A DNA stretch of 64,000 nucleotides from a candidate division WOR-3 bacterium (GTDB taxonomy: Bacteria; Hydrothermota; 32-111), in NCBI GenBank assembly GCA_037481815.1, contig JBBFKX010000002.1, forward strand, positions 288,001-352,000, in the 5' to 3' direction. Shown in pieces: positions 4,295-63,935 of this stretch; the first letter of the stretch is position 1; the number at the start of each line of letters is the position of its first letter. Under the pieces are notes generated by a model that was not told the origin of the DNA, did no database searches, and saw only the letters and a program-made list of their open reading frames with translations. A program made the translations under genes and the position numbers.

Positions 4295-4300
4295 AAGTAT

Positions 4301-4329
4301 ATTTTAATTGTTAACCAATTTATTGTCAA
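4301..4329 (-). promoter_or_regulatory. Sigma70-type promoter, probably leaderless
   Basis: TTGACA-N17-TAAAAT, then 6 nt to ATG 4294; no SD. Confidence 0.7.
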
Positions 4330-4341
4330 TAGTTTTGGATT

Positions 4342-5439: not shown

Positions 5440-6494
5440 TCTATTTTTTCAACTCCCAAAAGGTTGTAATCTTTATCATATACAAAATTTTTCGTCATAA
5501 TTTTAAACAAAGGATACCCGTTATACTTCATAGAAGGTGGCATTTTTTCTTTTAAGAGAGGATCTGATGAAAAATATTCGATTCTGTCATATGTAAAGTT
5601 ACTATTTCTTTTGATTATTCTTACAGCAAAATTTGAATCCGTTTCAAGAGGTTTTAAAAGTGTATCAAGATAAATTTTTTTAAATTCATATCCAATATCA
5701 TCATAGAAAATTAATTCGTAAAATTTTTGTAGACAACCTTTAGAATCTTTTTTTATTTTTAAACTCTTAACACCTTGAAAATTCCCATCTTCAATCTTTT
5801 CAGTATTCAAGACAATGTACTCTTCTCTGTTAAAAAATTTCAAGGAATCAACAATATTTTCGTTATTTTCATTTCTAACAATCTCTTCAAAACCAAGAGC
5901 ATCAGATGATAAAAATAGTTTTCCATCTTCACCAACACTATAAAATTTGACTTCCCACCTACTTGAATTTTTATCTTTAATAATAGTAGAGAGTTTTATA
6001 ACAACAGAATCAATCGATGGAACTTTTTCACCTTTATCATCTTCAAAATAAGAAAAAACCTTTTCACAACATTGTTTTTTTCTTTCAAAAGTTATAAAGA
6101 TCATTTTTTCAACATAATTAAATGCTTTAACACTTTCATTTTTTCTATCAAAAAATTTATAAATCATCTTTTCAGCAAAAAAACTATCATCTTCAATCTT
6201 CAAAAATGTATCAACATAAGAAATCTCCATTCTTGAAAAGTTAGATTTCCACCCAAAAACATCCTTTTCAACAGGTTTACCTTTATAACATATTTCTATT
6301 GAAATTGGCCTTTTTTTATTATCGTAATATATTCTATAACCCTCTATCTTTTCAAACTCTGATTTTGTAATCTTTTCTCTACCATAAATTCTCCCTATAA
6401 GATCAAAGTCCAAAAATCTGTAAAATTTTTCAGATGATAACAAGATTTGATAAAATACACAAAAAATTAAAAATAGAGCAAAAAATTTTTTCAT
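5436..6494 (-). CDS. Hypothetical exported protein
   Basis: 352-aa ORF with signal peptide; 4-nt overlap with the GT4 gene. Confidence 0.7.
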   Translation of the reverse strand: MKKFFALFLIFCVFYQILLSSEKFYRFLDFDLIGRIYGREKITKSEFEKIEGYRIYYDNKKRPISIEICYKGKPVEKDVFGWKSNFSRMEISYVDTFLKIEDDSFFAEKMIYKFFDRKNESVKAFNYVEKMIFITFERKKQCCEKVFSYFEDDKGEKVPSIDSVVIKLSTIIKDKNSSRWEVKFYSVGEDGKLFLSSDALGFEEIVRNENNENIVDSLKFFNREEYIVLNTEKIEDGNFQGVKSLKIKKDSKGCLQKFYELIFYDDIGYEFKKIYLDTLLKPLETDSNFAVRIIKRNSNFTYDRIEYFSSDPLLKEKMPPSMKYNGYPLFKIMTKNFVYDKDYNLLGVEKIE

Positions 6495-33200: not shown

Positions 33201-33619
33201 GTCCAATCCCAATGAATCGGATAATTTTCTCCAATAATAAGAATATCGTTCTGAACTGGTTTTTTAATAAATATTTCAGGCCTTGATATTACAAAGAAAG
33301 TATCACTGACATCAAAGTCGTTTGGATCGGATGGATTTGAAATTCTTATTTTACATGTAAGTGATGGATTATTTGGAACGGTCCAGAGATAATCTCCATC
33401 GTTTTGTGTTGAACTGTATATCAGAACCCAGTTTGTACCACCATCAATTGAATACTCCAACCTTGCTGATGTTGCATTACCTGTGATATCCCAATGTATA
33501 GGCATCTGATTTCCGACTATATAATTTTCATTTCCATTTGGAGTTCTTAAATTAAAGGATGCGGAAAATATTGAAATTGAGAATAAAAATAAAAATATTA
33601 ATAGAAAAATTTTTCTCAT
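24218..33619 (-). CDS. Giant secreted surface protein with 32 tandem Ig-like repeats and a T9SS-type CTD
   Basis: Signal peptide; ~94-aa repeats (SPNGGE..I.W...V.IEYS.DxGxTW...GxYxWTVP...SD..F); C-terminal VEIFDLSGRSV...SQGIYFIKV. Confidence 0.9.
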   Translation of the reverse strand: MRKIFLLIFLFLFSISIFSASFNLRTPNGNENYIVGNQMPIHWDITGNATSARLEYSIDGGTNWVLIYSSTQNDGDYLWTVPNNPSLTCKIRISNPSDPNDFDVSDTFFVISRPEIFIKKPVQNDILIIGENYPIHWDWTGVFANVKLEYTTDGGTNWTVITSSTPNDGEYIWSVPNFPSNQCKIRVTNTTDPNSFAVTENTFTIANNSLTLITPNGGEQYITGKYYPIYWLWSGSFTSVKLEYSADSGNIWNSITTSTTNDGSHNWLIPSINPSSKCLLKITNVSNPAVYDISDYTFSILSTSLTLLTPNGGETFVAGTKANISWDWEGSIANVKLEYSSDGGVNWNSIITSTACDGSYLWTVPNISTTNLLIRITNVNDVNCYDISNSQSSIVTAQIDITYPNGGEQLIVGEKYPVNWNWSGSFANVKIEYSTNNGSSWSTIDASDPNDGSFVWTVPLTPSSQCLLKISDAANSSVFDISNFSFTIKRPEIKILKINGNDTLIASNKYPIVWQTEGTISNVNIEYSTNNGATWNTIVTSTPNDGSYVWTVPSTTSSSYLLKITNSSDVTSYDISDTTFVVKSPQINLLSPNGGEAYKTGEKYPILWNSDSDFSSVNIDYSSDGGTTWNSIISSETNDGSYIWNIPSTLTPSTNYKVRVRNSSDNNSFDISDNTFTISSPSIKIISPDSGVSFLSGEKVSINYTYDTYFPNIKIEYSSDNGLTWNVITNSDSNTGTYIWTIPNLNSNDCFIKVLNLSDTLNSFAVSKKFSISKPTITVKSPKSNDSLLVGNVYQIEWINNGEISNVKIEYSTDNGSTWNVIVSSTVNEGSYFWTTPSTISSNVLIKVSDVSDPSNYAVSSQFSIIPAQITLVSPNGGETIIAGEYFPIEWNWIGSFSYVKLEYSTDGGSTWNKIINSDTLNDGSFIWAVPSTAVSSNVLFRVSNNQDPINTFDVSNGVFSVVSPSLTIVSPNGGESLVGGEIYPIRWRSQGTFANVMIEYSTDGINWISIDPSDPNDGVFNWTVPSVVSSNVKVRITSTTDGNTQDISDNNFSIVSPTLTILSPNGGESFISGNILPIHWKNNGNVSNVKIEYSTNNGNTWNTIISSTTNNGYYRWSIPSLVVSDSIKLKVTSTTDSLTKDVSDGLISIKRPTIKVLTPNGFENLTVGEYTPIHWENDGQFSNVKIEYSTDGGTIWKTISSSETNDGNYIWKVPNDVSNNCIVRITNTSDNLSYDISDNKFSILKPTVSIFNPDSAAVLIVGNKYPIYWNWTGTVDSVIIELYYKVSGIVQSTFISTATMNTGSFIFTVPNYVSDSCWIKVTSTANDSVYSLSKVFSIVRPIYDIVQPNGGESFYRGEKLEINWDWIGGPDSVSLFYSFDGGINYNSLTTVKNTGSYLWRMPSYPFNTYKFKVMSNKDNYAYDESDNNFSANYPVLNIDQPDSSDTIYYNNYFPIYLSNRGFLNDSIIIQINSNKKGIINLGSFLINDVFFFKDTFTDSLSDTIEILVLDKTTGDTFDISDKITVLPYSTIDKIIFPNQNDTMYVDEFYYIVWNMDSIYSNYSVELLYSTDGVNYLQYGERISNQNYLLFKIPHNASSNNFNIKLEFYDSSDSLRKTLEKNNLVVKKSILEVVYPDNTDTLYVGRAHNIIWRTIKGQPGSVQIYYNTDGITWKEVKSQVPDTGSYLWTIPNEPTSNALIRIEEYGDNQVTAYSQSFVIKPQEIFITSPLTNDTFIAGRDYHISWYNLGGVDSVNIYYSIDGGSNWTFVTKQGNSNSYKWTVPNYSSDKALVKVEFTRNSNVFDVSDTFTIIPQNILVTYPDISTVWYAGNKYYITWDYTGNFSNVKITYSLDNGKNWNVITNSTTNSQSYLWTLPQNYSDSVLIKVANVDDTTKYDLSSLFKIIPQEITVKYPFSTESLISGKQYNITWTYKGLYDSSIVEYSTNNGTTWNTLGKTLSSNRYYLWTTPNVKSDSTLIRIVNKDNTSILGVSELFTISDKIITITSPKLNDEYIVGEKALITFDFLGSSNDSVIVSYSTDGGTIWTQIDTIPSSTQYLEWTVPNVISSNCYIRITCLRLTSSTATSERFSIIPQTINVTSPISGSEWVAGRKYYITWNYTGSFSNVDLEYSTNGGSTWQTITTTTNSKYYLWTLPNISSSNSLVRVKNSSNTSVFGVSPIFTMKYPSVTVVSPKLSDTLLCGKNYYITWYSNMGSGDSVVISYSKNGGTTYTIIDTISATQKYFKWKVPEVGATNCLIKVTGYESPVIEGYSNQFVMKEQSINITYPNINDTILSLSPFYLTWDYTGGIDTLVGEYSLDNGSNWTTFANSIVASNQNYLFNPFPISNSLQTLIRLKNKANVLVQDVSNQFVTVYPVINITSFKPNSSFIVGSKIFITWKNDGLIDKVNIYYSTDNGASWNSIVSSYTNSGYYEWTVPNYISDSCFVKVSYSSLENVYDVSERFSIIPQTIVLFSPSLNDSLMVSKTYPITWYNTGTVDNVMLEYSLDGGSIWNTITGSTVNNKYYEWTLPTTLSSTSNGLIRIRNVGNLNVFDLSDNFRIIPQKLEITYPTLNSQFFVSRKYIITWKTFGTVSTVNLYYSLDNGANWISLASNLTNNGYYEWTVPDVNSNLVLIRVTNSNNESIYDDSEVFSIVPQLVLVNSPISTDRWIVGRKYFVTWTNIGTVSKVRIEYSYNDGASWNMVVDNLSNTNSYEWTIPNTPSENCFVKVSNYDNTSVYGTSSKFAIPLQTIEVLSPKSTDDYVSGNKYFITWKYTGTISNVDIQYSKDNGATWIYVATGVANNGYYEWTVPTEDSDNCLIKVLNSSNNNVYGVSERFTILPQNIMVTSPSSSDTMIAGRKYYITWRNSGAFTNCDIFYSTDLGLQWRSIASGVSNTGYYEWTIPDIAVSDMALIKISNSSQSTIYGISDTFVISKPIVKFTSPVLGNVFETTKKYYFTWTTLGTILQYNLEISYDKGVSWIQIIANQNNSGNYEWTVPSGMYSDSCMLKLTSSSNSSIYYYSDLFSIVSYSNIDNMSVLKNKNIKYFNLKMNNSINEKILFMEIPEDCYTRVEIFDLSGRSVGKVYDGKINSGVHRFELENYITSQGIYFIKVLSNKNGKIVYEKNIKILNLR
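24530..33560 (-). repeat. Protein-level tandem array of 32 units (~280 nt each), diverged at DNA level
   Basis: Units delimited by hand from the translation; units 16-17 are degenerate. Confidence 0.85.
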
Positions 33620-51347: not shown

Positions 51348-51860
51348 ATGAAATATTTGTTTCTATTGATTATTTTTTCGTTAATTCTCGTTTCGTGTTC
51401 AATAGGTCCTGTATACGTTTACAATTACCAGCCAGTAGTAAAAATTCTTGCAGACACAACAGAGGTCACTTTTATCGTTCAGGATTTATCACCTGATGGT
51501 TGGTGGTCAGGTGATGGAGTTGATTCTCTGAATTTCAAAATACTACTATCTGAAATTAAAAAAGTTAAATCACATATTACGGATATTCAATTCAACATAG
51601 TAACCGAAACTTATGGCAACATTTTTGAAGATCGAATTTCATTTTTAACTCCGATTGAATTATCCGGTTCAAAATCTGATACTTTAACATTACCTTTATC
51701 AGTCAACGAACGAAGCGCTTATTATACCGATATCTCTGATGGAATAAACGATAATGTTGGAGAGGCAGCAATCATTATAAAAGCGATATATTATGACGAA
51801 TTTGGAAACAGTTATGAATCTCTTCCTTTCTATCTACCAATCAAAGTAATAAAACCATGA
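51348..51860 (+). CDS. Lipoprotein (paralog 1)
   Basis: Lipobox LVSC; DGINDNVG; SD AGGAGG. Confidence 0.8.
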   Translation: MKYLFLLIIFSLILVSCSIGPVYVYNYQPVVKILADTTEVTFIVQDLSPDGWWSGDGVDSLNFKILLSEIKKVKSHITDIQFNIVTETYGNIFEDRISFLTPIELSGSKSDTLTLPLSVNERSAYYTDISDGINDNVGEAAIIIKAIYYDEFGNSYESLPFYLPIKVIKP

Positions 51861-51868
51861 GGTGAATT

Positions 51869-52375
51869 ATGAAAAAAATATTTTATATTTTATTTTTCAC
51901 AATTTTTCTTTCTTCCTGTTATACATCACCTACTTCGATAAAATATTATCAACCAATTTTGGATATAAGTATGAAAGACACTTTAAATTTTTCTATTCCA
52001 CTCGGTAACGATTCCATATGGAACTATGAGGATGTTGATTCAATATATGAAAATATAATAATATTTGAAAATCAGGGGTTGAACGCTTATATTACAGAAA
52101 TCGACTGGGAAATCTATGATTACACAAACAGAGTCAGAGAGAATTATAATAAAATATACCTAAACCCTGTAAAGATAGAAAAAAATTCATCTGACACGAT
52201 TTCTCTCCTTTTCTTTCTTTATGGTTCTTCTGCTTTAAGAATTGATCAAGAAGATGGAGTAGAAGATAATGTAGCTTATGGAACAATCCAGTTGAAAATT
52301 AAATATTATGATGATAATGGTATAACTTATACTTCAAAGATATTCTATAAAAATGTTAAAGCTGTTGTTGAATAA
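51869..52375 (+). CDS. Lipoprotein (paralog 2)
   Basis: Lipobox LSSC; DGVEDNVA. Confidence 0.8.
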   Translation: MKKIFYILFFTIFLSSCYTSPTSIKYYQPILDISMKDTLNFSIPLGNDSIWNYEDVDSIYENIIIFENQGLNAYITEIDWEIYDYTNRVRENYNKIYLNPVKIEKNSSDTISLLFFLYGSSALRIDQEDGVEDNVAYGTIQLKIKYYDDNGITYTSKIFYKNVKAVVE

Positions 52376-52391
52376 TTAAAGAGAGGTATCT

Positions 52392-52925
52392 ATGAAAAAA
52401 TTATTTTTCATAATTATTTTTGTAATATTGTTTATCTCCTGTTCTATAGGACCTGTTCCAGTTTATTACTCTCAACCGATAGTTTCACTTCTCGATGATA
52501 CACTTGAAGTTATTTTTTCTGTTTCAGACAAAGATTTATCTGGATGGAACCATTACAATCAAAACAACATTGGTTCAGATACCGCTTTTCTTTCAATAGA
52601 TGCATATGAAACAACAGGAGAAAAAAGTTTTATAGAAAGGATTGAGTACAGATTTTTAGTTGATGGTCAGATAGTCGAAAGAGATGATGTTTTTTATCCC
52701 ATACCTTTAGAAATAGAGGATAAAGATACAATTCATTTACCCGACCTTTTGATAGTTGTAAATGAACCTCTTGCTTATGAAATCGATATTCAGGATGGTT
52801 ATGCTGACAATGTTGGAACAGGAATACTTGAAACTAAAGTATATTATACAGATATCAAAGGAGAATCTTTCTCATCTATTCCAATAAGAAAAAGATTTAA
52901 AGTTATAAAACCTTTAACATATTGA
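52392..52925 (+). CDS. Lipoprotein (paralog 3)
   Basis: Lipobox FISC; DGYADNVG. Confidence 0.8.
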   Translation: MKKLFFIIIFVILFISCSIGPVPVYYSQPIVSLLDDTLEVIFSVSDKDLSGWNHYNQNNIGSDTAFLSIDAYETTGEKSFIERIEYRFLVDGQIVERDDVFYPIPLEIEDKDTIHLPDLLIVVNEPLAYEIDIQDGYADNVGTGILETKVYYTDIKGESFSSIPIRKRFKVIKPLTY

Positions 52926-52950
52926 CTTTTAAAGATTTATTGAATATGAT
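52922..52950 (+). promoter_or_regulatory. Internal sigma70-type promoter for the fourth lipoprotein
   Basis: TTGACT-N17-TATGAT, then SD AAGGAGGT. Confidence 0.7.
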
Positions 52951-52972
52951 TTTATCAAAGGAGGTATCAAAA

Positions 52973-53455
52973 ATGAAGAAAACTATTTTCTTTCTTTCAG
53001 TTATATTACTAATAACTTCCTGCACTCTATATGTACCCACACCTGATTTCACGATCACATGGATAGATCCTCTTGGAAGTGTTATAACATCAACAACAAC
53101 TGAAGTTCTTATTAACACAATAGATGTTGAAAACAACACTTCTTATGAAGCGATACTCGATAGAATCTCCTATGATTACATCTACAACGGTGATGTAATT
53201 TACGATGGACAGGACATCTGGAATATATACGCTTTACTTCCGCCAACAGTAATAGACACAGCAACTGGAGATCCTATAAAAGGAAAAGCAAGCATTGAAA
53301 ATATTCCGATCCCAGTTCCAGCATCAATTTATACCTATATGGATTCAAGAGATATTGAGGGAGTAACTCTGAGGATATATATAAGTGGAACCGATAATAT
53401 AAATAAAACAAAAAGAACAACAAAGTATGTAGATTACGGTATAGCAAAATATTAA
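52973..53455 (+). CDS. Lipoprotein (divergent member 4)
   Basis: Start moved to MKKTIFF after the SD; lipobox ITSC. Confidence 0.8.
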   Translation: MKKTIFFLSVILLITSCTLYVPTPDFTITWIDPLGSVITSTTTEVLINTIDVENNTSYEAILDRISYDYIYNGDVIYDGQDIWNIYALLPPTVIDTATGDPIKGKASIENIPIPVPASIYTYMDSRDIEGVTLRIYISGTDNINKTKRTTKYVDYGIAKY

Positions 53456-53461
53456 ATTTAA

Positions 53462-53486
53462 AAGAGGGAGTTAAAAACTCCCTCTT
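53462..53486. terminator. Hairpin terminator between convergent genes
   Basis: AAGAGGGAGTT-AAA-AACTCCCTCTT with A/T-rich flanks. Confidence 0.75.
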
Positions 53487-55249
53487 AATTTTTCCTTAAC
53501 TCTTTTGACATTCTCTTTCAGTTTCAAATAATTGGAATCAACCATAAGACCATTTTCAAAACTTTCTTGAGCATTTTCATACGAACCAATAAGGTTATCA
53601 AGATGAACAGGTACAAAACCAAGAAAACCTGCTGAAAGGTAAAACAAAAGAAACTTTTCGGCAAAATATCCTTCTTCAAAATATGATGCCCCAAGATTAT
53701 TGTAAGCAAGAGATGAATTTGGAGAAATTTCCACTATCCTTCGCATCATCTCTCGTGATTTTAAACTCATTCCAAGATTTTTATAAGTCAAACCAAGATT
53801 GTAAAGAACCCTTACATTTTCAGGTTCGATATTTTTAGCTTTTTCAAGAAAATATAATGACTTTAAATAATCTCTTTTTGAAGCATACAAAGTCCCCAGA
53901 TTTATAAGAGAGTTCGTGTATAAAGAATCGAGTTCATAAGATTTTAAAAGATTTTTTTCAGCACCAGTGAAATCGCCTTCTTTCATAAAATAAAGTCCAA
54001 GGTTATTTGTTCCAACTACGGACTTTGGATTATTTTTAACAACATATGACCATAATGAGATCTCACTTCTAAAATTTGGAATATAAAGTAAAGTAAAGAT
54101 TAAAAAACAAAATGAATAAAGAACGAAAAAATACTTTCCAATATTTTTCAACTTTATATATATAAAATAAGAAAAAAGAACAAAAGAGAATGATGGTAAA
54201 AAAAGGTATCTATCTGCAAAAAGATTTAAAACCGGTATAAAATTTGATATAGGGATATAATTTATAACAAAAAATAAAAAAGAAAAAAGTATAAATTTTT
54301 CGTTTCTATATCTGCAAACAGAATAAATCAAAACTGAAAAAAGCAAAAGATTGAAGATAAAAAGTTTAATGTTGTTTTCAGAGATTGGAATATAATAGTC
54401 AACAACAAGTGGATATGGGATAAAAAGATTTTTGATATATCTCATGAAAATATATGGCTGGATTTTTAAAATATCTAAGTATGTAGCATCCCTTAGCATT
54501 CTATTTTCTTTAAAAAACTGATCCATATTTTTAAAATCTGGCATATAAAAACCAAAAATAAAACCAAAAAATAATATAAATATAAACGCCAATAAAATAG
54601 TTGAAAAAAATATCAGATAAAATTTTTTATCAACATTTTTTTCAAATATCCTGTCATATACAAAAAAAATGAAAGGCAAAACTACAGCGACTTCCTTTGA
54701 AAGAAGTGCTAAGAAAAAGAAAACAACAGAAAATATTCTTTTGTTTTCAACATGAAAATAGAAGGATAACATCGAAAATATGTAAAGAAAAAGTTCTTTT
54801 CTGTGGGTTATGATAAGAATGTTTTCAACATGAACTGGATGGAATGAAAATAAAAATACCGATAACAATGAAAAAACTCTGTTTTCCGTAATTTTATAAG
54901 TCAAGAATGATGTAAGAAAAATCGTTATAACATACAGGAAAAGATTTTCCAATCTATAAAAGATAACTTTCTCTTTAAAAAAGAATCTATCAAGAATTAT
55001 AGACAATTTTCTTATAGGTCTTTCTGACAATTTTATCGAAAAAATATCTTTTAAATCATCGACAGTATCATCTTCAAATATTGTTGGATAATCGTCAAAC
55101 TGAAAAGGATAATTTAAAGAAAACAGATAAGGAACAATTGAAATCAAAGAAATAATAAAAAGAAAAAAAATAAATTTTTTATTTGAAATTTCTGAAAAAC
55201 TCTTCTGTTTCTTTAGAGCACTCTTTCCAGCTTTTGAACCTTTGTTCAT
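53471..55249 (-). CDS. TMTC-like GT-C membrane glycosyltransferase with C-terminal TPRs
   Basis: FQFDD..I, RP, FHPVHVE...RKEL, LLSKE, ADRYLFLPS, SEISLW...P followed by TPRs; about 11 TM segments. Confidence 0.8.
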   Translation of the reverse strand: MNKGSKAGKSALKKQKSFSEISNKKFIFFLFIISLISIVPYLFSLNYPFQFDDYPTIFEDDTVDDLKDIFSIKLSERPIRKLSIILDRFFFKEKVIFYRLENLFLYVITIFLTSFLTYKITENRVFSLLSVFLFSFHPVHVENILIITHRKELFLYIFSMLSFYFHVENKRIFSVVFFFLALLSKEVAVVLPFIFFVYDRIFEKNVDKKFYLIFFSTILLAFIFILFFGFIFGFYMPDFKNMDQFFKENRMLRDATYLDILKIQPYIFMRYIKNLFIPYPLVVDYYIPISENNIKLFIFNLLLFSVLIYSVCRYRNEKFILFSFLFFVINYIPISNFIPVLNLFADRYLFLPSFSFVLFSYFIYIKLKNIGKYFFVLYSFCFLIFTLLYIPNFRSEISLWSYVVKNNPKSVVGTNNLGLYFMKEGDFTGAEKNLLKSYELDSLYTNSLINLGTLYASKRDYLKSLYFLEKAKNIEPENVRVLYNLGLTYKNLGMSLKSREMMRRIVEISPNSSLAYNNLGASYFEEGYFAEKFLLFYLSAGFLGFVPVHLDNLIGSYENAQESFENGLMVDSNYLKLKENVKRVKEKLRGSF

Positions 55250-56198
55250 ATTTTTTGTCTCCTTTGACTTTTTCTATTATTCTATCAAGATTTTCTTTAT
55301 ATGATAGGTCCATAATATAGTATATAGGTAAATCTTTATAAACCTCTCGATGAACTGGAATATCCATACATACAACTCTTTTTCCAAGAAACAATCCTTC
55401 AGCGACAGGTAAAGAAAAACCTTCCTCTCTTGAAAGATAGATTATAACAAAAGTATCATTTATGATTTTTTCAAATTCGTTGAATGGAAGATATCCTTTA
55501 AACTCGAATTCTTTAACCGCTTCTTTCAGAGTTTCATCATCAACTCTTCCAGTAATTAGAATTTTTTTATCTCTAAAGAATTCTTTTAAATCTTTTGCAA
55601 GTTTCAAAGCAAGTGTGATGTTTTTTCTTTCTTTTAAAGTGGAAGGTATCAAAATATATTCTTCTTTTTGATTTTCATATTTTTTGTATGTATCAAAACC
55701 GTTATAAATCACACTACTCTTTTTTGATTCTAAATTTCTAAATCTCTTTTTATAAATATCCATACAGTTTTTTGTTATAAAAATTACACCATCTGATCGT
55801 TTCGAAATAAGATTGTATTCGATTTTCCAATAATATCTTGTAAAAATATCCTCTTTTGAACTTCTCTTTTCAGGTATAAAATCATGTATGGTCGATACTG
55901 TTTTAAAAAATTTGATCATAGTTGAGTTCTGTTTTGGCAGATAAAAAAGGTCAATTTTATAAAAAAGACATATAAAAGGAAAAACAAACTGTTCATAAAA
56001 AAATTTTGTAACTCTGTTAAAAAATGGGATCCTTAAATATTCAAAATCATCTCTTCCAACAATCTCTTTGGCTTTTTTTTGATCTATCAAAACAAAATAT
56101 TTGTTCTCATGATCAGAAAAATTTTTCAAAATCATCGTTATATGTGTTGACACACCTCCACCTTTTGTAATCGAAGTTCCATCAATAAGTATTCTCAT
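55179..56198 (-). CDS. Glycosyltransferase family 4
   Basis: GGVSTH, STIHDFIP, RKN, EEGFSLPVAEG, DIPVHREV. Confidence 0.88.
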   Translation of the reverse strand: MRILIDGTSITKGGGVSTHITMILKNFSDHENKYFVLIDQKKAKEIVGRDDFEYLRIPFFNRVTKFFYEQFVFPFICLFYKIDLFYLPKQNSTMIKFFKTVSTIHDFIPEKRSSKEDIFTRYYWKIEYNLISKRSDGVIFITKNCMDIYKKRFRNLESKKSSVIYNGFDTYKKYENQKEEYILIPSTLKERKNITLALKLAKDLKEFFRDKKILITGRVDDETLKEAVKEFEFKGYLPFNEFEKIINDTFVIIYLSREEGFSLPVAEGLFLGKRVVCMDIPVHREVYKDLPIYYIMDLSYKENLDRIIEKVKGDKKYEQRFKSWKECSKETEEFFRNFK

Positions 56199-56988
56199 TT
56201 TTCTCCTTCATTTTTTTTATATTTTTGAAAAATTCATACCTTGCTCTAACAGGTGAAAAATTTTTTTGCATAAAGACCTGTAAAATCATTATAAATGGTT
56301 CAACAAAAATGAGAAACAATAAAAATAAAAAAATATTTTTAGAATCAAAATTTTTAAAAACAAAAAGCAATCGATTTCTTTGCAAAAAAAATCTTTTATC
56401 TTTTAAACCTGAAGATGAATGTTTATGGTAAACAACGAGATTTTCATCAAAACAGATTTTTTTAATCTTTTTTAACCTGACCGATAAATCAACATCTTCA
56501 TAATACATAAAATAATTTTCATCAAAACCTTTTAATCTTTCAAAGATCTCTCTTTTTATAATAAAAAACGAACCGGTAAGGTGGAGTTTTCTTTTATCAT
56601 ATTTTAGATCTCTGTTTAAAATGTTATAAAAAAGTATAATTTTTGAACCAAGAGATTCAACATCTTTTGTATAAAAATTTTTTACTAGTGGAACAACAAC
56701 ATCATCTTGGATATTCTTTACCCTTTTAAAAAAATCTTCATCAAAATTTATGTCATCGTTTGTAATTATAAGGTATTCATTTTTAGAAAACTTTGAAGCA
56801 TAGTTGATCGCCTGACCATAGCCAGCACCAAAGAGTTTTAAAACTTTTATTCTTTCATCTTTCAGATTGAAATCTTTATCTTGAGTTAAAACAAGTATAA
56901 CATCTCCAATATTTTCCTTTAAATAGGATTTTATCTGTTCTTCATAAGTATCAAAATAAACTGGAACGACTAGAGAAAACTTATTCAT
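56182..56988 (-). CDS. Glycosyltransferase family 2
   Basis: GYGQAIN, ITNDD, GFDENYFMYYEDVDLS. Confidence 0.88.
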   Translation of the reverse strand: MNKFSLVVPVYFDTYEEQIKSYLKENIGDVILVLTQDKDFNLKDERIKVLKLFGAGYGQAINYASKFSKNEYLIITNDDINFDEDFFKRVKNIQDDVVVPLVKNFYTKDVESLGSKIILFYNILNRDLKYDKRKLHLTGSFFIIKREIFERLKGFDENYFMYYEDVDLSVRLKKIKKICFDENLVVYHKHSSSGLKDKRFFLQRNRLLFVFKNFDSKNIFLFLLFLIFVEPFIMILQVFMQKNFSPVRARYEFFKNIKKMKEKNENTY

Positions 56989-57880
56989 ATCTTTTGATAC
57001 CTTTCAAACTCAAAAAACCAAAAATTAAACCTTTCACATAAAAAGAAAATTTTTTTGTTTTATTTATATGAAAAAGGATTGAAATTAAAGTTCCTGAAAC
57101 AAATGATAGCCAGTTTTTCAAAGATAAAATTTTATAGTTTTTAAAATATAAAAAAACTCTGTTTCTACCTTCCCAGAACACTTTTTTCGGAGAATATTCA
57201 TCCATCCTGTTTTCCAGTTTCGTTGTTCCCGAAATAAAATGATATCCAACAGTATCAGGTGTAAAAAGTATTTTATATCCATATTTTTTTAACCTCAAAG
57301 AGAAATCAACATCTTCAAAGTACATGAAAAATCTTTCATCAAGCATTCCCGCTCTAACAAAATAATCTTTTGCAAAATAACATATTGACATTGAAAACCC
57401 TTCAACATCTTTTTTGATAATTTTGGTTTCACTTATTTTTTTACCATGAAGTATTTTGTAAGGTCTTATGAAATTTCCAACATCGTCTCCTGCAGAATCA
57501 ACAAATTCCCCATTATAATCTAAAACCAGGGGAGCAAAAAAATGATAATCTCTATTTTGATTCATGTTTTCTATACAATTTTTTATAAAATTTTTTTCAA
57601 GATAAACATCGTTATTCAAAAGTATAAGATTTTCAAACTTTGATTGTTTCACTCCAAGGTTTACAGCGAAACTAAAACCTCTGTTCTCCAACAATCTAAA
57701 GAGTGTTACATTCTTTAAATTTTTTAAAAGATACAAATAACTTTTATCAGAACTGTGATTATCAACAATTACAACTTCAGAATAGGGATAGGTCTGTTGA
57801 TTCAAAGAAACAACAAGTTTTTCAACAAACTTATCTCCATTGTAGTTTATGATAATAATAGAAACATTATTGTTTAACAA
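56981..57880 (-). CDS. Glycosyltransferase family 2 (WbbL-like)
   Basis: IIINYN, VDNHSSD, NRGFSFAVN, LLNND, LDERFFMYFEDVDFS. Confidence 0.9.
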   Translation of the reverse strand: MLNNNVSIIIINYNGDKFVEKLVVSLNQQTYPYSEVVIVDNHSSDKSYLYLLKNLKNVTLFRLLENRGFSFAVNLGVKQSKFENLILLNNDVYLEKNFIKNCIENMNQNRDYHFFAPLVLDYNGEFVDSAGDDVGNFIRPYKILHGKKISETKIIKKDVEGFSMSICYFAKDYFVRAGMLDERFFMYFEDVDFSLRLKKYGYKILFTPDTVGYHFISGTTKLENRMDEYSPKKVFWEGRNRVFLYFKNYKILSLKNWLSFVSGTLISILFHINKTKKFSFYVKGLIFGFLSLKGIKRYE

Positions 57881-59741
57881 AAAATTTTCCTCTCATCTTT
57901 TTATTTTCAATCTCGAATATATAGTAATAGATTCCAGATTTAAAGTTTTCAACATTTATTTTTATCCAATTTTCAACTTTTGTTCCTGATCTTTCAAAAA
58001 CTTTTTTCCCATCGTTTGTAAATATTACTATTTTATACATTCCTGCATACTCAGTGAATATGTTTATTTCGTTAACAGCCGGATTAGGAAAAACATAACT
58101 TTCAATCGAATCATTTACAAAAAATTCTAAAATTGTATCAATATCTGAAACATTGTTAAATTCATCTACTCCGGTTATAAACAAAATATTTTTTCCATAA
58201 CCGATTTTATGGACGGTTCCAACATTCGAATTAAGTATGGTTCTATAAAGATCTTTTATTTTATATATTTTTAAATCGTCAAGATAAAGATAAAAATCCT
58301 GTTCTAAATTTTTATTGAATTCGATTTTCAGAAGTCCTTTTTTGATTTTAAAGTAAAAAGATTTCCAGTCAGTTAACTCTCCTTCAAACGATTTTACTGG
58401 TATTCCATTCAGATAAATATAAAAGCATGAATCAGAAAATAATCCCTTGTACTTAAAAGATAAGAGATTTTCTTCTTCAGGTAAAAAGATTTCAAAAGTA
58501 AAATTTCTGCAGAACAAAGAATATGGTTTTGAGTAGGGATTCTGGTCTGTTAGACAAAAATTTCCAGTAAAATTTTCAGGCAGAGAATCGAAGTTTTCTA
58601 TATAGGTATAATAGTTGTTTGAAAATTCAACATCATAATTTTTTATTTTAGAGAAATCATAAGAAGGATCAAAGTTTATTTTAAAATTGTTATTATTTGT
58701 TTTCGTAAGTTCTATATTGTGCACAGGTAAAGGGGAAAAGGTATCTTCTATGCCGAACGATAAAAATTCTTTTCTTATAACCTGAAAATCTTTATCGATA
58801 CTTAGGTTTATATAGTCTTTATAAAGTTTATACAAAGTTAAAAAATTTAAAGGATAAAATAATTTTATTCCTTTAAAATTTTCATTTTTTGTTAAATTGA
58901 TTACAACAGAATTTTTTAGATTACATGAAACATCAGTTTCATTTATTATAGAAAATTCATTCCTGTCAGTGAACTTTAACTCTTGAAAATCTTTTAAAAT
59001 ATTTTCAGTTTTAATTGTTGATATCGTTAAATCCTTATAGTTTGTTGAATCGGAGTAATGCTCGAAATATTTTTCAGAGATTATTTTTGCTATATCCTGT
59101 GGATCTTTTAAAGTATCTATGCAGGGAAGTATTTTATCATAAGGAAAACCATTGTAGGGAACTATCCCTTCCGATCCTACAACAAACGAAACATAATCTT
59201 TGATTTCATAAACTACCTCAACACTCTGCATCAAACAAGCATCAAATATCAAAATATCTGTTTTCTTCTTTGTTTTATTGTATATATCCAAAAAAATATT
59301 TTTAAATTCACCTTCAGTTATCGAAATAAAATCAAACGGATGGTTATCAAAAAATATCGATTTATCTTTCGTAGTAAAATTGTACCAGCCATTACCATGA
59401 TCCCATAAAACCATTATCCTTTTTTCATAATCGTATTTATAAAATGTTGAAAAGAAGTTTGAAATGTTTTCGAAATCACCTGAATTCACATTATCAAAAA
59501 CTTTAAGGGTATCACTTTTTCCATCATTTATTTCAAAGATATATGAATAGAAAGGTGAATCAAGAAAAATGATTATATCAGTATTTTTTATGTTTTTTGA
59601 ACTCTCTATCAATTGATTGTAGTTTGTTAAAAATCCATTATAAAGATTGTTATCAGCACAAAAATATCCTATAAAAAGTATTTTTGATACTACAAAAAGT
59701 GGTGGCAAAAAAAATATTAAAAAAAATGGTAACTTTTTCAT
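57867..59741 (-). CDS. Clostripain-like C11 peptidase with T9SS-type CTD
   Basis: YFCADNNL, LWDHGNGW, FDACLMQSVEV, GSE; CTD FPNPA...SGIYYY...GKFFVK. Confidence 0.85.
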   Translation of the reverse strand: MKKLPFFLIFFLPPLFVVSKILFIGYFCADNNLYNGFLTNYNQLIESSKNIKNTDIIIFLDSPFYSYIFEINDGKSDTLKVFDNVNSGDFENISNFFSTFYKYDYEKRIMVLWDHGNGWYNFTTKDKSIFFDNHPFDFISITEGEFKNIFLDIYNKTKKKTDILIFDACLMQSVEVVYEIKDYVSFVVGSEGIVPYNGFPYDKILPCIDTLKDPQDIAKIISEKYFEHYSDSTNYKDLTISTIKTENILKDFQELKFTDRNEFSIINETDVSCNLKNSVVINLTKNENFKGIKLFYPLNFLTLYKLYKDYINLSIDKDFQVIRKEFLSFGIEDTFSPLPVHNIELTKTNNNNFKINFDPSYDFSKIKNYDVEFSNNYYTYIENFDSLPENFTGNFCLTDQNPYSKPYSLFCRNFTFEIFLPEEENLLSFKYKGLFSDSCFYIYLNGIPVKSFEGELTDWKSFYFKIKKGLLKIEFNKNLEQDFYLYLDDLKIYKIKDLYRTILNSNVGTVHKIGYGKNILFITGVDEFNNVSDIDTILEFFVNDSIESYVFPNPAVNEINIFTEYAGMYKIVIFTNDGKKVFERSGTKVENWIKINVENFKSGIYYYIFEIENKKMRGKFFVKQ

Positions 59742-59771
59742 AAAAAAGGTGGGGTTTTTAAAACCCCACCT
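59742..59771 (-). terminator. Intrinsic terminator after the PorV-like gene
   Basis: AGGTGGGGTTT-TAA-AAACCCCACCT plus a U tract. Confidence 0.8.
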
Positions 59772-59778
59772 GATTTTA

Positions 59779-60831
59779 TTAGAAATTCAGAGTTAATGTG
59801 ACTCTATGACCGTTCACATAATTGTCTGACAGAAGTCCCATCTCTGTATAGGAATAATCTATTCCAACATCTATTCCGGAGAATCCATATTTGAAACCAA
59901 TACCTGCTGTAAGATTTTCAATCTTTTCGTTCTGTGTTAGATCATCCATATTGTCAAGAACATATTTGAATTTTTCCCAGTTGAATATATATCCCAGCCT
60001 TACAAAGAGTATCTTTGAAAGGTTGTATTCCATACCAAATCTTATGTTCTCGGTTCCATCGTTTGGATTCTGGAATTCAAGTGTTGTCGTGAGGAAATTT
60101 GTTGGACCTTCAAGAATGTCATACGCAAGACCAAAGTTGAAATTCATTGGAAGTGTGTATGTATCGGTTTTATAATATATGTTAAGTGGTGTCTGACCAT
60201 CTGTCCATTTCGAATATTTATCGGTTAATATAGTTCCGCCTGTAAACATTCCTTCAGATCCAAAATTCCTGATAGACATTCCTATTCTCAATGATTTGAA
60301 ACCTGTTTTATAGAGTGCTCCAGCGTCAAAAGCAATCATTGTAGAAGTTGCATCAACTATTTTTTCCTGGATGTACTTTAAGGTTACTCCAGAAGTGAGT
60401 TTATCAGTAAATGCTTTCGCGTAGGATGCTCCAACAACATAACTTGATGCGGAGAAGTATTCTCCTGTTCCCTCTGGTTTATCAACAGTTGTTATTTCCA
60501 TTTCAGGCATTGTCATTATTCCCGCCTGTAAACCCAAAGCACCCATTATGCCCATTGGAGCAGCAAAAGCAACATAGGAATAACTTATCTCTGCAGGATA
60601 TTTCACATAGTTGAGTAAAAGTCCCATCTTGTTCATCGTTGCAATTCCCGCTGGGTTGTAATAAAGTGCTGATGGATCATCAGCAACAGAAACAAAAGCA
60701 CCACCCATCGCAGTTGCTTTCGAGCCAACCAGTATTTTCAAGAACTGAGCACCTGTGGTTCCCTCATTGAAAGAATAGGCAAAATTTGCTAAAAGGGTAA
60801 ACGATATGATTATAAATAATAATTTTTTCAT
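59779..60831 (-). CDS. PorV/PorQ-family outer membrane beta-barrel
   Basis: GAQFLKILVGSKATAMGGAFVSVADDPSALYYNPAG; ends HRVTLTLNF. Confidence 0.88.
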   Translation of the reverse strand: MKKLLFIIISFTLLANFAYSFNEGTTGAQFLKILVGSKATAMGGAFVSVADDPSALYYNPAGIATMNKMGLLLNYVKYPAEISYSYVAFAAPMGIMGALGLQAGIMTMPEMEITTVDKPEGTGEYFSASSYVVGASYAKAFTDKLTSGVTLKYIQEKIVDATSTMIAFDAGALYKTGFKSLRIGMSIRNFGSEGMFTGGTILTDKYSKWTDGQTPLNIYYKTDTYTLPMNFNFGLAYDILEGPTNFLTTTLEFQNPNDGTENIRFGMEYNLSKILFVRLGYIFNWEKFKYVLDNMDDLTQNEKIENLTAGIGFKYGFSGIDVGIDYSYTEMGLLSDNYVNGHRVTLTLNF

Positions 60832-60839
60832 TGTTCCTC

Positions 60840-63800
60840 CTACTTAATGATAGCAAATTTGCCAATTTTTGTTTCACCGTTTGGTGTCTGAACATGATAT
60901 ATGTAAATCCCTGGTGCTGGTATCTGATCATTTTTTGTTAAAAGATCCCATTCAGCATAACCTTTTGTTAGGTCATACGCTGTGGTTGTCTGGTTATCTT
61001 TTGTAACCTGAATCTCTACATCATGGTTGATTGTTGCAATCAACTCACCTGATAGTGTGTAAATTCTGATTGTGCATTTATCTGGTAAATTCGTGAAAAG
61101 AATTCTTCTATAATTATAGTCAAGATCAAGTTCACTTCTGACAACATAAGGATTTGGAACAACTTTAATCTTATCAAGAGTTGAATCAACTACTGTTGCA
61201 AAAGTTGCTGGAGTAACTGTGAATTTAAATGTTGAATTTATAGGTGGATAAGTAACAACGAATGCTGTATCGTTTGGAGTCACTCTTACAACCCATACAT
61301 CACCATCTTTTGGCCTTGCACTCCAAACCATTGGTCTTGAAGGTATCGGTGAATTGTTAAACTTTAGCACGATATTTGAAAAATATAGACCAACCTTTGC
61401 TGTATTTGCTGATGTTGACTTTAGATATCTTGGATTCTGTGAAGGAAGTGCTGTTGCTGATGTATTGAAATGCCAGTTGTCACCTATTGTTCTATTACTG
61501 TAAGGTATTTCAATATTGTTGTCAACATCAAAAATTGTTACTGTTAAGTTTGTATCATTTGGCAAGAATGTATCCGTTCCGATAACAGTAAGAGTTGGGT
61601 ACACAACCTCGTGCCAGGTAATAATATATTCTTTGCTGTTGTGATAGAATTGTCTTCCCTGTGCTGCAATTTCAACTTTCAAAATTGAACTATCGTAAGT
61701 ACCACTCTGTACACTGACTTTCAAAGTTGAATTACTTGTATTCATCCAGCCAGATGTGTCGAGAGTGAAACTGTTTATTTTAAATAGGAATCCTGAATAT
61801 GGATTCCATTTTTCACTTGGAAGTCCAATTATTTTTTCATTTTCTACCCAGAGTGTCTCTAAATCCATCTTATCTTCTATAACTATATCTCCATTTTTAT
61901 TTGTGATCGTGTAAGGATACCCAGGTGTTAAGTCATTATAAACGGAACTATCTGCAAGTCCAAATGTCAATGTAAATGTATCATCTTTAACTTTTTCGAT
62001 CATTGTGTCAAGAGCGTTTATAATTTCCATACTGATCAAAGATGTATCAATGTTTCCAGAGATTAGGTTTATATTATATGTTCCAGGGACAAGGTTTGAA
62101 GTTACTGCTCTCGGAACCGCTGCTTTTGTTTTTCCTGCACCTTCAAGTATAAGTGGAATAGCACCTATGGTATCATTTGTTGGAGTAACAGCATAACCGT
62201 TGAAGTTAACATCATACGCTCTCACTGTATAATAATACTGGATTCCGTTTGTAAGATTTGAATCAACAAAATAGTATGGAATTCCAGTATTTGATCCAAC
62301 TGTATCATAGTAGTATGTTGTTTCATAAGTTGCAGCAGCTGTATTGTAATAAATTAAAGAATCTTTTAATATAACTGTATATTCATTGATTTTATCAAAT
62401 TTACCTATCAATTCCCATGTTCCACCTGCACCAGTTCTCGACCTATATACATTATACCCTTCAATATCATATTCTCTATATGCAGGGTTGTATGTTGGAA
62501 GTAGTGGATCTGAAACAAGAGAATAATATTTGTCTGGAATGAGTTCCTGAGCATTATCCCAGTAGATTACAACTTTTTTATCCATTCCAACAACATCAAA
62601 GTTAACCTGTCCGGGTGCAACCGGTCCAAGCCATCCCTGATCATAAATCTGTTGTGCAATAAGCATTTTGTTCAACATTTCAGCAGAGTTTTTTGAAATT
62701 ATGATTCCAATAATAACTGTTGCAGTTGAATCATATTTAAGAGTGAATGGTCCTGATGCCATTGCAAATCTTTTATCACCCGCTGCTGTTGGGTCCTCAG
62801 TTTTTCCAGGATAACCTGGAACACCCTGCCCCCATGTTGGGAAAGGTCTATATGATGATTCTGGATCATTTGGGTTATAAATCGTGTGATCATAACCGGC
62901 AAGTACAAGATACCTTTTGATATGATCTGATGGATCAGTTTGTATTGTAAAGTAGTTGAATGTTGTCATTCCAATTCTTTCCCCTGCTGGTATTATGAAT
63001 GAACCATCATGATAAAGATCTATTGGTTCAGTTGCTCTTGGTGATTCCAGATATTTGTACGCAATAATTCCAGGGAAGTGTGTCCAGTTTGCTTCAGATT
63101 CAAGTTGGAACTGATATCCAACATTGATCTGCATCAAAGTATCGTTAACACCAGCATAATCAACTGTCATCGTATCAATAAAACCAAGAAGGTCGTTAGC
63201 CGCATCCTCTGCTTCATTTCCTATATCGTTATCGGCACCAATACCAACATAACATTTCTTAATGTCTTTGTGATCACTTCTCTTGTTCTGTATCTCATAT
63301 TTTATAAAAATAATATCTTCCTTTAATGGCCCAACCCAGGCATATGTTGTCTGTTTGACCTCTATCTCAAGTGGTCTTGAAGTTGAAACCAGACGATACG
63401 CTATATCCATATCGTTGAACTCAGTGTATGAATCCTGCATTGAAACAACAGAGTCGGCACCAGATGTTGTTTTCAAAGGCCATGGTTGTCCATAATTATC
63501 ACTTGTTGAAATATAAACTATATCCCATGGGTTGTTGTAGGGTGTTGGTCTATCTGGTGATGCATCGTTTATATCACCTGGAACAAATTCTGTTGATGCT
63601 GAGTTTGGATAGTAACCGCATGACATCGTTGTATCTGCTGTTCCATCATCGTTTTCAATTATTCCACCAACCCACACTCCTGCACCAAACACGTATGTTT
63701 CCTGAGGAAAACCAGCAGGCCAGTAAAGACCTGAGTTGTTTCCAGAATAAACATCCTGACCAAAGATAGCAAAGTTTGTTATATATGTATTAATCTGGTT

Positions 63801-63935
63801 TATGTCAAGCATCCTCTGGTCGAATATCTTACCTGATGTCATTTTGGGATCAATATATGCAGGACGAGCAAAAATGGTTATTGAAAAAAGGAGTGTGAGG
63901 AGGATAAAAAATGCAATTTTGTTAATTTTATTCAT
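60840..63935 (-). CDS. Large secreted protein with FN3-like domain and FlgD/T9SS-like CTD
   Basis: Signal peptide; DIEGYNVYRS...LTNGIQYYYTVRAYD; KVVPNPY...FTNLP...IRIYTLSGELI...WDL...PGIYIYHV...GKFAIIK. Confidence 0.8.
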   Translation of the reverse strand: MNKINKIAFFILLTLLFSITIFARPAYIDPKMTSGKIFDQRMLDINQINTYITNFAIFGQDVYSGNNSGLYWPAGFPQETYVFGAGVWVGGIIENDDGTADTTMSCGYYPNSASTEFVPGDINDASPDRPTPYNNPWDIVYISTSDNYGQPWPLKTTSGADSVVSMQDSYTEFNDMDIAYRLVSTSRPLEIEVKQTTYAWVGPLKEDIIFIKYEIQNKRSDHKDIKKCYVGIGADNDIGNEAEDAANDLLGFIDTMTVDYAGVNDTLMQINVGYQFQLESEANWTHFPGIIAYKYLESPRATEPIDLYHDGSFIIPAGERIGMTTFNYFTIQTDPSDHIKRYLVLAGYDHTIYNPNDPESSYRPFPTWGQGVPGYPGKTEDPTAAGDKRFAMASGPFTLKYDSTATVIIGIIISKNSAEMLNKMLIAQQIYDQGWLGPVAPGQVNFDVVGMDKKVVIYWDNAQELIPDKYYSLVSDPLLPTYNPAYREYDIEGYNVYRSRTGAGGTWELIGKFDKINEYTVILKDSLIYYNTAAATYETTYYYDTVGSNTGIPYYFVDSNLTNGIQYYYTVRAYDVNFNGYAVTPTNDTIGAIPLILEGAGKTKAAVPRAVTSNLVPGTYNINLISGNIDTSLISMEIINALDTMIEKVKDDTFTLTFGLADSSVYNDLTPGYPYTITNKNGDIVIEDKMDLETLWVENEKIIGLPSEKWNPYSGFLFKINSFTLDTSGWMNTSNSTLKVSVQSGTYDSSILKVEIAAQGRQFYHNSKEYIITWHEVVYPTLTVIGTDTFLPNDTNLTVTIFDVDNNIEIPYSNRTIGDNWHFNTSATALPSQNPRYLKSTSANTAKVGLYFSNIVLKFNNSPIPSRPMVWSARPKDGDVWVVRVTPNDTAFVVTYPPINSTFKFTVTPATFATVVDSTLDKIKVVPNPYVVRSELDLDYNYRRILFTNLPDKCTIRIYTLSGELIATINHDVEIQVTKDNQTTTAYDLTKGYAEWDLLTKNDQIPAPGIYIYHVQTPNGETKIGKFAIIK

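Follow-up and report, generated by a model that had tools for sequence, protein, structure and literature searches.

A conserved chain of overlapping glycosyltransferase genes with a TMTC-like membrane protein in a candidate division WOR-3 bacterium

We analysed a 64,000-nucleotide (nt) stretch of DNA from a candidate division WOR-3 bacterium (contig JBBFKX010000002.1, positions 288,001 to 352,000), which is referred to below as the window and numbered from its first letter. The G+C content of the window is low (25–37%). Seven tightly packed genes span positions 53471–63935 on the minus strand, and the last five of them overlap by 14, 8, 17, and 71 nt, running from a C11 peptidase gene through two genes for family 2 glycosyltransferases (GT2) and one for a family 4 glycosyltransferase (GT4) to the gene of a 592-amino-acid (aa) membrane protein. 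This last protein appears to be a glycosyltransferase of the GT-C type carrying tetratricopeptide repeats (TPRs), and the chain as a whole may encode a glycan pathway split across the inner membrane.

Organization and conservation of the gene cluster

In the direction of transcription, the cluster consists of the following genes.

60840–63935, minus strand: conserved secreted protein, 1031 aa, with a weak match to a type IX secretion system (T9SS) sorting domain (TIGR04183, 0.0019)
59779–60831, minus strand: outer-membrane protein of the PorV/PorQ family (T9SS shuttle/attachment family), 350 aa (NF033709, 6.3e-52)
57867–59741, minus strand: cysteine peptidase of the clostripain family (C11) bearing a C-terminal T9SS sorting domain (CTD), 624 aa (Peptidase_C11, 2.4e-40; Por_Secre_tail, 5.7e-10)
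56981–57880, minus strand: rhamnosyltransferase-like GT2, 299 aa (PF00535, 4.4e-18)
56182–56988, minus strand: divergent GT2, 268 aa, with a single C-terminal hydrophobic helix (PF00535, 1.3e-6)
55179–56198, minus strand: GT4 of the GT-B fold, 339 aa, predicted to be cytoplasmic (Pfam); the end of the gene overlaps the start of the GT-C gene by 71 nt
53471–55249, minus strand: putative GT-C-type membrane glycosyltransferase, 592 aa (open reading frame [ORF], motifs, TPR matches, and remote homology)

The C11 peptidase gene is the first of the overlapping five-gene chain and shares 14 nt with the gene of the 299-aa GT2. The four overlapping minus-strand genes at 53471–57880 were found exactly as the original prediction had described them, encoding two GT2 enzymes, a GT4 enzyme, and a multispanning membrane protein with TPRs. 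Its placement of this chain downstream of CTD-bearing cargo and a PorV-like gene also held, with the C11 peptidase and its sorting domain and the NF033709-positive gene lying upstream on the same strand. The 350-aa protein passes the NCBIfam model NF033709 with 177.2 bits against a cut-off of 90, and it scores below the cut-offs of the specific PorV, PorQ, and PorV2 equivalog models. No Pfam family was found for the 1031-aa protein, and no family beyond its weak TIGR04183 match.

The genes of the locus are real and not chance ORFs, because all 13 other genomes of its family (family f1) that were sampled have orthologues, with identities to the 592-aa protein of 42–87%. In the phylum sample of 201 genomes, 67 contain a match to this protein at E ≤ 1e-5; orthologues are absent from all five sister-family genomes, and six genomes of other families hold relatives at 30–36% identity. 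Comparison of the orthologous f1 loci revealed that the order 1031-aa protein, PorV/Q, C11, GT2, GT2, GT4, GT-C is kept at every locus with enough flanking sequence (L011, L012, L013, L015, L016, and L141; L014 is a 2.6-kb contig holding only the GT4 end and the lipoprotein gene, and L140, L142, and L143 were counted as the same records as L016, L015, and L013). Down to 39% GT-C identity, the family retains the 8-, 17-, and 71-nt overlaps between start and stop, the overlap between C11 and GT2 is retained as 4 or 14 nt, and the GT4 orthologue adjoins the GT-C gene at every f1 locus. Identities at these loci are 56–93% for the PorV/Q protein and 41–85% for the 1031-aa protein.

At the six other-family loci, a GT4 gene is adjacent to the GT-C gene in four, one has a PorV/Q-like gene at a distance of 3.7 kb, and no C11 gene was found. 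Among 30 more distant loci (Dependentiae/TM6, metagenome-assembled genomes [MAGs] of Pseudomonadota, and others), the gene usually stands beside a tandem paralogue. The partnership with GT2, GT2, and GT4 and the T9SS neighbourhood are therefore the joint inheritance of one family and not an independent, repeated association. The predicted connection of the chain with T9SS genes thus stands for family f1, in which it is tight and conserved, whereas the link to PorV/Q and C11 is confined to that family; a phylum-deep T9SS link was looked for and not found, the PorV/Q–C11 neighbourhood being missing at the six loci outside it. Two other arrangements were observed in the course of this comparison. 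In other families, the GT-C gene is followed by GT4, a B12-binding radical SAM gene (in three of the six), and then one or two genes for proteins without a family or with a weak AMP-binding match. In Dependentiae/TM6 and several Pseudomonadota MAGs, TMTC-like genes occur as tandem paralogue pairs of about 735 and 795 aa.

L134:3568–10215, L136:3541–10137, and L137:8950–14568: a different conserved module of GT-C, GT4, and radical SAM genes
L021–L047, for example L024:7827–12609 and L042:7890–12545: tandem paralogue loci

Three further features lie within or beside the cluster.

59747–59771, minus strand: terminator-like hairpin of 11 pairs (6 of them G-C) followed by a T run, between the PorV/Q stop codon and the C11 start codon
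53462–53486, no strand assigned: two-way hairpin resembling a terminator, where the GT-C and lipoprotein genes converge
51348–53455, plus strand: four small lipoprotein genes (170, 168, 177, and 177 aa) converging on the GT-C gene

The first hairpin (59771–59747) occupies the 37-nt gap between PorV/Q and C11. Because its T run abuts the C11 ATG and leaves no space for a promoter, we read it as a probable attenuator inside a longer unit. A similar hairpin is present at four of the six orthologous loci that were folded (L011, L013, L015, and L141), the stretches from the other two being cut short. The second hairpin probably closes the transcription unit, and co-transcription of the locus genes is suggested by their arrangement. 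The four lipoproteins each have a signal peptide followed by Cys, as read from their sequences; three are paralogous (30–41% identity), and none matches a Pfam or NCBIfam family. The last of the convergent lipoprotein genes is present at all orthologous loci, and in gene order these genes are conserved neighbours of the GT-C gene.

The 592-residue membrane protein

Analysis of the 592-aa translation located all four motifs that had been put forward as signatures of the TMTC family, namely FQFDD (residues 49–53), HPVHVE (137–142), LSKE (183–186), and DRYLFLPS (346–353), and each falls on the most conserved columns of the alignment. Among 49 aligned sequences, D53 and K185 are invariant, and at least 90% have D52, P78, H137, P138, S184, and R347. 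A second alignment covered the membrane domain only (41 sequences), and in both alignments the residues corresponding to the catalytic and phosphate-binding motifs of TMTC vary little or not at all. Against the TMTC motif list in Table 4 of PMC7801869, the correspondences in the 592-aa protein are as follows.

D52-D53: counterpart of TMTC motif M1
S75-E-R77-P78: counterpart of TMTC motif M2 (its R-P end)
R150-K-E152: M3-like
K185-E186: counterpart of TMTC motif M4
D284-Y285: M5-like
P333/P339: M6-like
D346-R347-Y348: counterpart of TMTC motif M7

The counterparts of M1, M2, M4, and M7 are conserved in the alignments of the family, and the DD of the first outer loop, the K-E, and the (E/D)-R-x-x-Y motifs of TMTC proteins are all present. 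Alignment-averaged hydropathy, a crude method, gives about 11 hydrophobic segments, and TPR matches (Pfam) cover residues ~415–535 with roughly four repeats. Six of 22 N-terminal residues are Lys/Arg, in which the short inner loops are also rich. Because of the 11 segments and these basic regions, the N-terminus is predicted to be cytoplasmic, which would put the TPR arm and all loops bearing motifs on the periplasmic side.

Direct searches of Pfam and NCBIfam detected only the TPRs, except for a weak match to a "cell surface glycopolymer formation" model (2.8e-5, residues 96–214). With hhalign, the membrane-domain profile aligned to a bacterial PF08409/PF13231-bearing TPR family at 99.95% probability (E 3.3e-38, 427 columns); this partner is a Bacteroidota family with 2,472 matches at E ≤ 1e-5, many of them with PF08409 or PF13231, of which 16 were aligned. 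In the ESM Atlas, 17 of the 30 named matches are PMT_2 clusters (0.97–0.98), and a chordate DUF1736 cluster stands at rank 19 (0.92). A word-seeded search through 7,999 candidates returned 135 proteins at E ≤ 1e-3, about 22 of them close relatives; among the matches listed, distant homologues (22–33% identity) carry PF13231 in about 20 of 120 and PF08409 in 2 of 120, with names that include protein O-mannosyl-transferase and GT39. The closest homologues come from candidate division WOR-3 (87%) and candidate division TA06 bacterium 32_111 (77–78%), and a 63% relative is found in a MAG labelled Acetofilamentum (Bacteroidaceae in the NCBI taxonomy), a label that may not reflect its lineage. Within the genome, the membrane domain is single-copy.

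Searched against 1.84 billion cluster representatives, the profile retrieved 115,256 (E ≤ 1e-3), 89,144 (E ≤ 1e-10), and 39,000 (E ≤ 1e-30). Given the profile matches and the hhalign result, and despite its failure in direct Pfam tests, the 592-aa protein is a divergent member of this very large bacterial group of GT-C proteins with TPRs, remotely tied to TMTC and PMT. The proposal of a TMTC-like GT-C is thus upheld at the level of remote homology (hhalign and Atlas neighbours), whereas a direct PF08409 or PF13231 match was not obtained. The group, with its 115,256 representatives, is among the commonest uncharacterised membrane enzymes, and its members are the only prokaryotic relatives of the animal TMTC O-mannosyltransferases. 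A protein without transferase activity, serving as a TPR-bearing membrane scaffold or chaperone, would accord with the lack of a direct match to any curated GT-C model; we consider this very improbable, as the TMTC motif residues are (near-)invariant across the 49 and 41 sequences and the profile match to the PF08409/PF13231 family is strong.

The TMTC family (CAZy GT105) allows a closer comparison. Enzymes of this family put mannose taken from a polyprenyl-phosphate donor onto Ser/Thr in folded beta-sandwich domains. Metazoan TMTC1–4 (PF08409) are protein O-mannosyltransferases of cadherins, for which PMC7801869 gives seven motifs and an 11-helix topology with a cytoplasmic N-terminus, and it notes homologues "even among prokaryotes". 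Similar to TMTC1–4 as described there, the 592-aa protein is predicted to have its N-terminus inside and C-terminus outside, with about 11 segments, its C-terminal TPRs forming an arm away from the cytoplasm; it has the DD pair in the first outer loop and an R-P string further along that loop, K-E in the third outer loop, and (D/E)-R-x-x-(Y/F) before the second-last helix. In contrast to TMTC1–4, it is without a PF08409 match, it keeps neither the SHKSY of M2 nor the W of DW (S-E-R-P and D-Y here), and its gene stands in an operon with three cytoplasmic transferases. The relation to TMTC emerges only through intermediate bacterial sequences. The TPRs, about four, are also fewer than is usual in TMTCs. 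Within the bacterial group, whose members are annotated as "tetratricopeptide repeat protein", "protein O-mannosyl-transferase", or "GT39 family", the 592-aa protein has its place, and it differs from the others in that its subfamily is limited to one WOR-3/TA06-type family and a few relatives at 30–36%, has fixed GT2-GT2-GT4 partners, and escapes the Pfam models.

The soluble transferases and a candidate glycan pathway

The 339-aa GT4 matches Glycos_transf_1 (7.3e-13) and Glyco_transf_4 (1.3e-9) in Pfam, has no hydrophobic segment at a 19-residue setting, and found no sequence match among solved structures. Both GT2 enzymes of the operon match rhamnosyltransferase, EpsD, and MftF-type models of NCBIfam. 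These matches are weak for the 268-aa GT2, which has a hydrophobic segment at residues 216–242 and retrieved nothing meaningful among solved structures by sequence. The 299-aa GT2 matches TIGR01556 over residues 13–286 (5.4e-21; 75 bits, below the cut-off of 200.55), and its nearest solved relatives by sequence are the GT2 domains of chondroitin and heparosan synthases. By eye, D-D/N-D-D and E-D-x-D motif strings were recognized in both GT2s and an E-x7-E string in the GT4. No signal peptide was found in any of the three, and the single C-terminal helix of one GT2 is their only hydrophobic segment of this kind. All three are therefore predicted to be cytoplasmic and to act before flipping, and because of this location they would be unable to extend a glycan already attached in the periplasm. 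The earlier notion that the locus "initiates and extends" O-glycans on exported proteins has to be revised on this point, the GT2, GT2, and GT4 enzymes acting before and not after periplasmic transfer.

The genome (1.58 Mb in 20 contigs, 95% complete) was surveyed through about 1,366 ORFs of at least 100 aa, and the 69 proteins outside the window with at least seven hydrophobic segments were compared with Pfam. It has 12 GT2s with PF00535, and 6 of the 10 outside the operon match polyprenyl-phosphate-sugar synthase models (ArnC/AglJ/PpgS-type). Neither operon GT2 matches the ArnC, PgfS, AglJ, or PpgS models at E ≤ 0.01; a role as donor synthase was ruled out for them, as they match no synthase-type model while six other GT2s of the genome do. 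One initiator of the PglC type (Bac_transf) is encoded, with no WecA-type second PF00953 gene in the genome, along with three to four Wzx-like flippases, MraY, and LptF/G. A Wzy_C protein is encoded by a separate gene (C1:759552–761030), and a weak PMT_2 protein and a YfhO-like GT-C are also present.

With the gene structure, family relations, conserved residues, topology pattern, and synteny observed as described above, we infer the donor, the acceptor, and the order of steps as follows. On the cytoplasmic face, the two GT2s and the GT4 would use nucleotide sugars to build or extend a lipid-linked glycan, the primer coming from the single PglC-type phosphoglycosyltransferase of the genome, and the product would be flipped by one of the Wzx-like flippases. 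The GT-C, with its catalytic loops (DD, HPxHxE, SKE, and DRY) and TPR arm in the periplasm, would then transfer from a polyprenyl-phosphate-linked donor. The acceptor would most likely be Ser/Thr of exported proteins, with the C11 peptidase and other T9SS cargo as candidates. A protein acceptor is plausible by analogy and is preferred because of the only characterised relatives (TMTC and PMT) and the TPR arm. This reading, of one glycan pathway split across the inner membrane with a periplasmic GT-C step and exported-protein Ser/Thr as the likely acceptor, is favoured by the overlapping and conserved gene order, the recurrence of GT4 in four of six other-family loci, and the presence of the initiator and flippases in the genome. 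We hold it tentatively, at a probability of about 0.4.

Several observations weigh against it. The operon contains no synthase for a lipid-phosphate-sugar donor and no flippase, and the genome contains no GtrA. The 592-aa protein matches no Pfam GT-C model (PF08409 and PF13231, at E ≤ 0.01); none of the 41 aligned membrane domains matches PMT_2 or DUF1736, and two match GtrII; and the membrane-domain profile retrieves no solved GT-C by sequence, its one match being to a plexin at chance level (E 0.048). Searching the whole protein against solved structures by sequence returned TPR proteins only, the whole genome has no PF08409 (TMTC_DUF1736) match at E ≤ 0.1, and the genome scan found no PF13231 (PMT_2) at the 592-aa gene. 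The PorV/Q-C11-GT2-GT2 context is absent at the six other-family loci, confining the T9SS neighbourhood to one family, and the GT4s beside the distant relatives are not orthologous, only that of L138 matching the GT4 of the window. The terminator-like hairpin at 59747–59771 may uncouple the chain from PorV/Q. In addition, bacterial GT-Cs with lipid or polysaccharide acceptors (ArnT, GtrII, and YfhO) are equally compatible with the data, and TPR arms are also found on polysaccharide-export proteins.

The acceptor may be something other than a protein: a lipid-linked glycan, lipopolysaccharide (LPS) or O-antigen, a glycolipid, or a surface polysaccharide, which the three cytoplasmic transferases would help to build and the GT-C would decorate or join. 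One version of this alternative is a glycan tethering T9SS cargo to the surface, like the A-LS linker of Porphyromonas gingivalis, in which case the TPR arm would dock to a partner protein or polymer. LptF/G and the Wzy_C-type protein show that LPS-type acceptors exist in this genome, the two GtrII matches among the 41 family members are to an O-antigen glucosyltransferase family, and the weak "cell surface glycopolymer formation" match points in the same direction, as does the position of the operon behind a PorV/Q-family gene. The P. gingivalis linker is also proposed to take the same number of cytoplasmic steps (PMC13086638). On the other hand, PMT_2/DUF1736 proteins with TPRs are the closest relatives by profile and in the Atlas, and no match to Wzy_C (PF04932, O-antigen ligase) was found in the 592-aa protein or its 41 relatives. 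Outside one family the operon no longer adjoins PorV/Q, the gene of the PorU-like sortase is 50 kb distant, and no amino-sugar or Wbp/Vim-type genes stand beside the operon. We regard a non-protein acceptor as the main rival reading, somewhat less probable than the first.

The genes might also be neighbours by descent without a common pathway, the GT-C working alone as a single-sugar transferase while GT2, GT2, and GT4 serve another glycan. Its donor, a polyprenyl-phosphate sugar, would then be made by one of the six ArnC/AglJ/PpgS-like GT2s of the genome, none of which is in the operon. Characterised PMT and ArnT members use monophosphate-linked single sugars, and the same holds for TMTC-group members (PMC7801869). 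The 30 distant loci, mostly with a tandem paralogue in place of these transferases and with a synthase-like GT2 beside the GT-C gene in two, are in keeping with such an enzyme. The conservation of the 8-, 17-, and 71-nt overlaps down to 39% GT-C identity and the recurrence of a GT4 neighbour in four of six other-family loci argue for a shared pathway instead, and we consider the solitary enzyme unlikely.

A bolder extension of the split pathway would wire periplasmic GT-C glycosylation to the T9SS. Operons headed by sorting-domain genes (C11 here, and a PLD-like gene before the YfhO cluster described below) would carry their own transferase sets, and the TMTC-like GT-C would glycosylate cargo or build a tether before or during export. 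Among the approximately 1,366 ORFs there are 43 T9SS sorting-domain matches over the cut-off (52 at E ≤ 0.01), and because of this number a sorting-domain neighbour is not rare, at about 3% per neighbouring gene. PorV-family matches number three over the cut-off and six in all, the 350-aa protein being one of the three; a PorV-like gene two genes away is less expected, though this comparison is post hoc. We think such wiring improbable on the whole. If true, the bacterial TMTC-like proteins, a very large family, would gain a first function, and the enzyme that transfers O-glycans in bacteria with a T9SS, so far without a name, would have a candidate type.

Known systems and other loci of the genome

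Three-component periplasmic systems combine a GT2 synthase of polyprenyl-phosphate sugar, a flippase, and a GT-C (GtrB/GtrA/GtrII, ArnC/ArnT, and CsbB/YfhO). The present locus resembles them in its GT-C, which is predicted to face the periplasm, and in the six synthase-like GT2s of the genome, and differs in that the operon is without synthase or flippase and the genome is without GtrA. A complete set of this type exists elsewhere in the genome, around the YfhO-like gene (C1:772.8–783.1 kb).

For the cargo-linking pentasaccharide of P. gingivalis, PMC13086638 proposes the initiator WbaP and three cytoplasmic transferases (GtfC, GtfF, and VimF), followed by Wzy and WaaL in the A-LS pathway. Compared with that outline, the WOR-3 locus likewise has three cytoplasmic transferases, an initiator elsewhere, and a position beside a T9SS attachment-family gene, but a PMT-clan GT-C takes the place of Wzy/WaaL and no Wbp/Vim amino-sugar genes are nearby. 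The T9SS adjacency of the WOR-3 locus is family-specific, and the likeness is one of gene roles. Bacteroidota have a general O-glycosylation of proteins, for which PMC8729774 in 2022 called the transferring enzyme unknown. The WOR-3 lineage resembles these hosts in its T9SS, its many exported proteins, and its clustered transferase genes, and belongs to a different phylum.

Among the papers listed by literature searches, none assigned a substrate to a bacterial TMTC-like member or named a GT-C with TPRs as the enzyme that transfers O-glycans in Bacteroidota. Bacterial TMTC-like proteins are already known from print (PMC7801869) and from automatic annotation, and the novelty here is limited to one further member and a lineage-specific gene arrangement, with no new principle. 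As a compact, conserved five-gene unit comprising a possible substrate peptidase, three cytoplasmic transferases, and the GT-C, the locus offers a reasonable entry point.

The genome encodes a further GT-C with TPRs, a TMEM260-like protein of 927 aa (C1:403458–406241, L066; PF11028, 6.5e-42; PDB 9RQL, human TMEM260, 1.5e-14), whose gene is two genes from that of a 1806-aa SprA-like T9SS translocon protein (C1:397200–402620, L144). The TMEM260-like gene is present in 80 of 81 sampled phylum genomes, and its adjacency to SprA in 13 of 14 family f1 genomes and in none of the other-family rows compared. Comparison of the focal profile with this protein by hhalign revealed no relation (probability 0.4%), in a weak comparison with a single sequence on one side.

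A second glycosylation cluster headed by a sorting-domain gene was observed on the minus strand at C1:772819–783136 (L145, L123, L117, L128, L127, L085, L119, and L121). It begins with a PLD-like enzyme with LTD and CTD (849 aa), an ArnC-like GT2, an AglJ-like GT2, and a GT4, and continues with an LPG_synthase_TM flippase-like protein, the YfhO-like GT-C, two GT2s, and a methyltransferase. A distance of 3.6 kb separates the PLD and YfhO genes in six of six genomes of the genus, whereas another genus has them rearranged and a third has them on different contigs.

At the other end of the window, positions 3–6494 on the minus strand hold the gene of the PorU-like sortase (NF033707, 2.1e-42, below the cut-off), which extends beyond the window, together with the preceding genes for a 471-aa sorting-domain protein, a GT4 (4342–5439), and a 352-aa protein without a family. 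The exported Ig-rich protein on which the locus had been supposed to act measures 3133 aa (24218–33619, minus strand) and carries a T9SS sorting domain as well as matches to Reelin-subrepeat-B-like, Kre9/KNH Ig-like, CHB_HEX_C, and BNR models; it lies 20 kb off, and no tie between it and the locus was found. Lastly, 17 polytopic proteins of the genome (at least seven hydrophobic segments) are without a Pfam family at E ≤ 0.05, apart from two faint hints, and some of them may be further GT-C or flippase types. Examples are as follows.

C1:245988–247706: familyless polytopic protein L061
C1:586256–588208: familyless polytopic protein L077
C1:628905–631022: familyless polytopic protein L079

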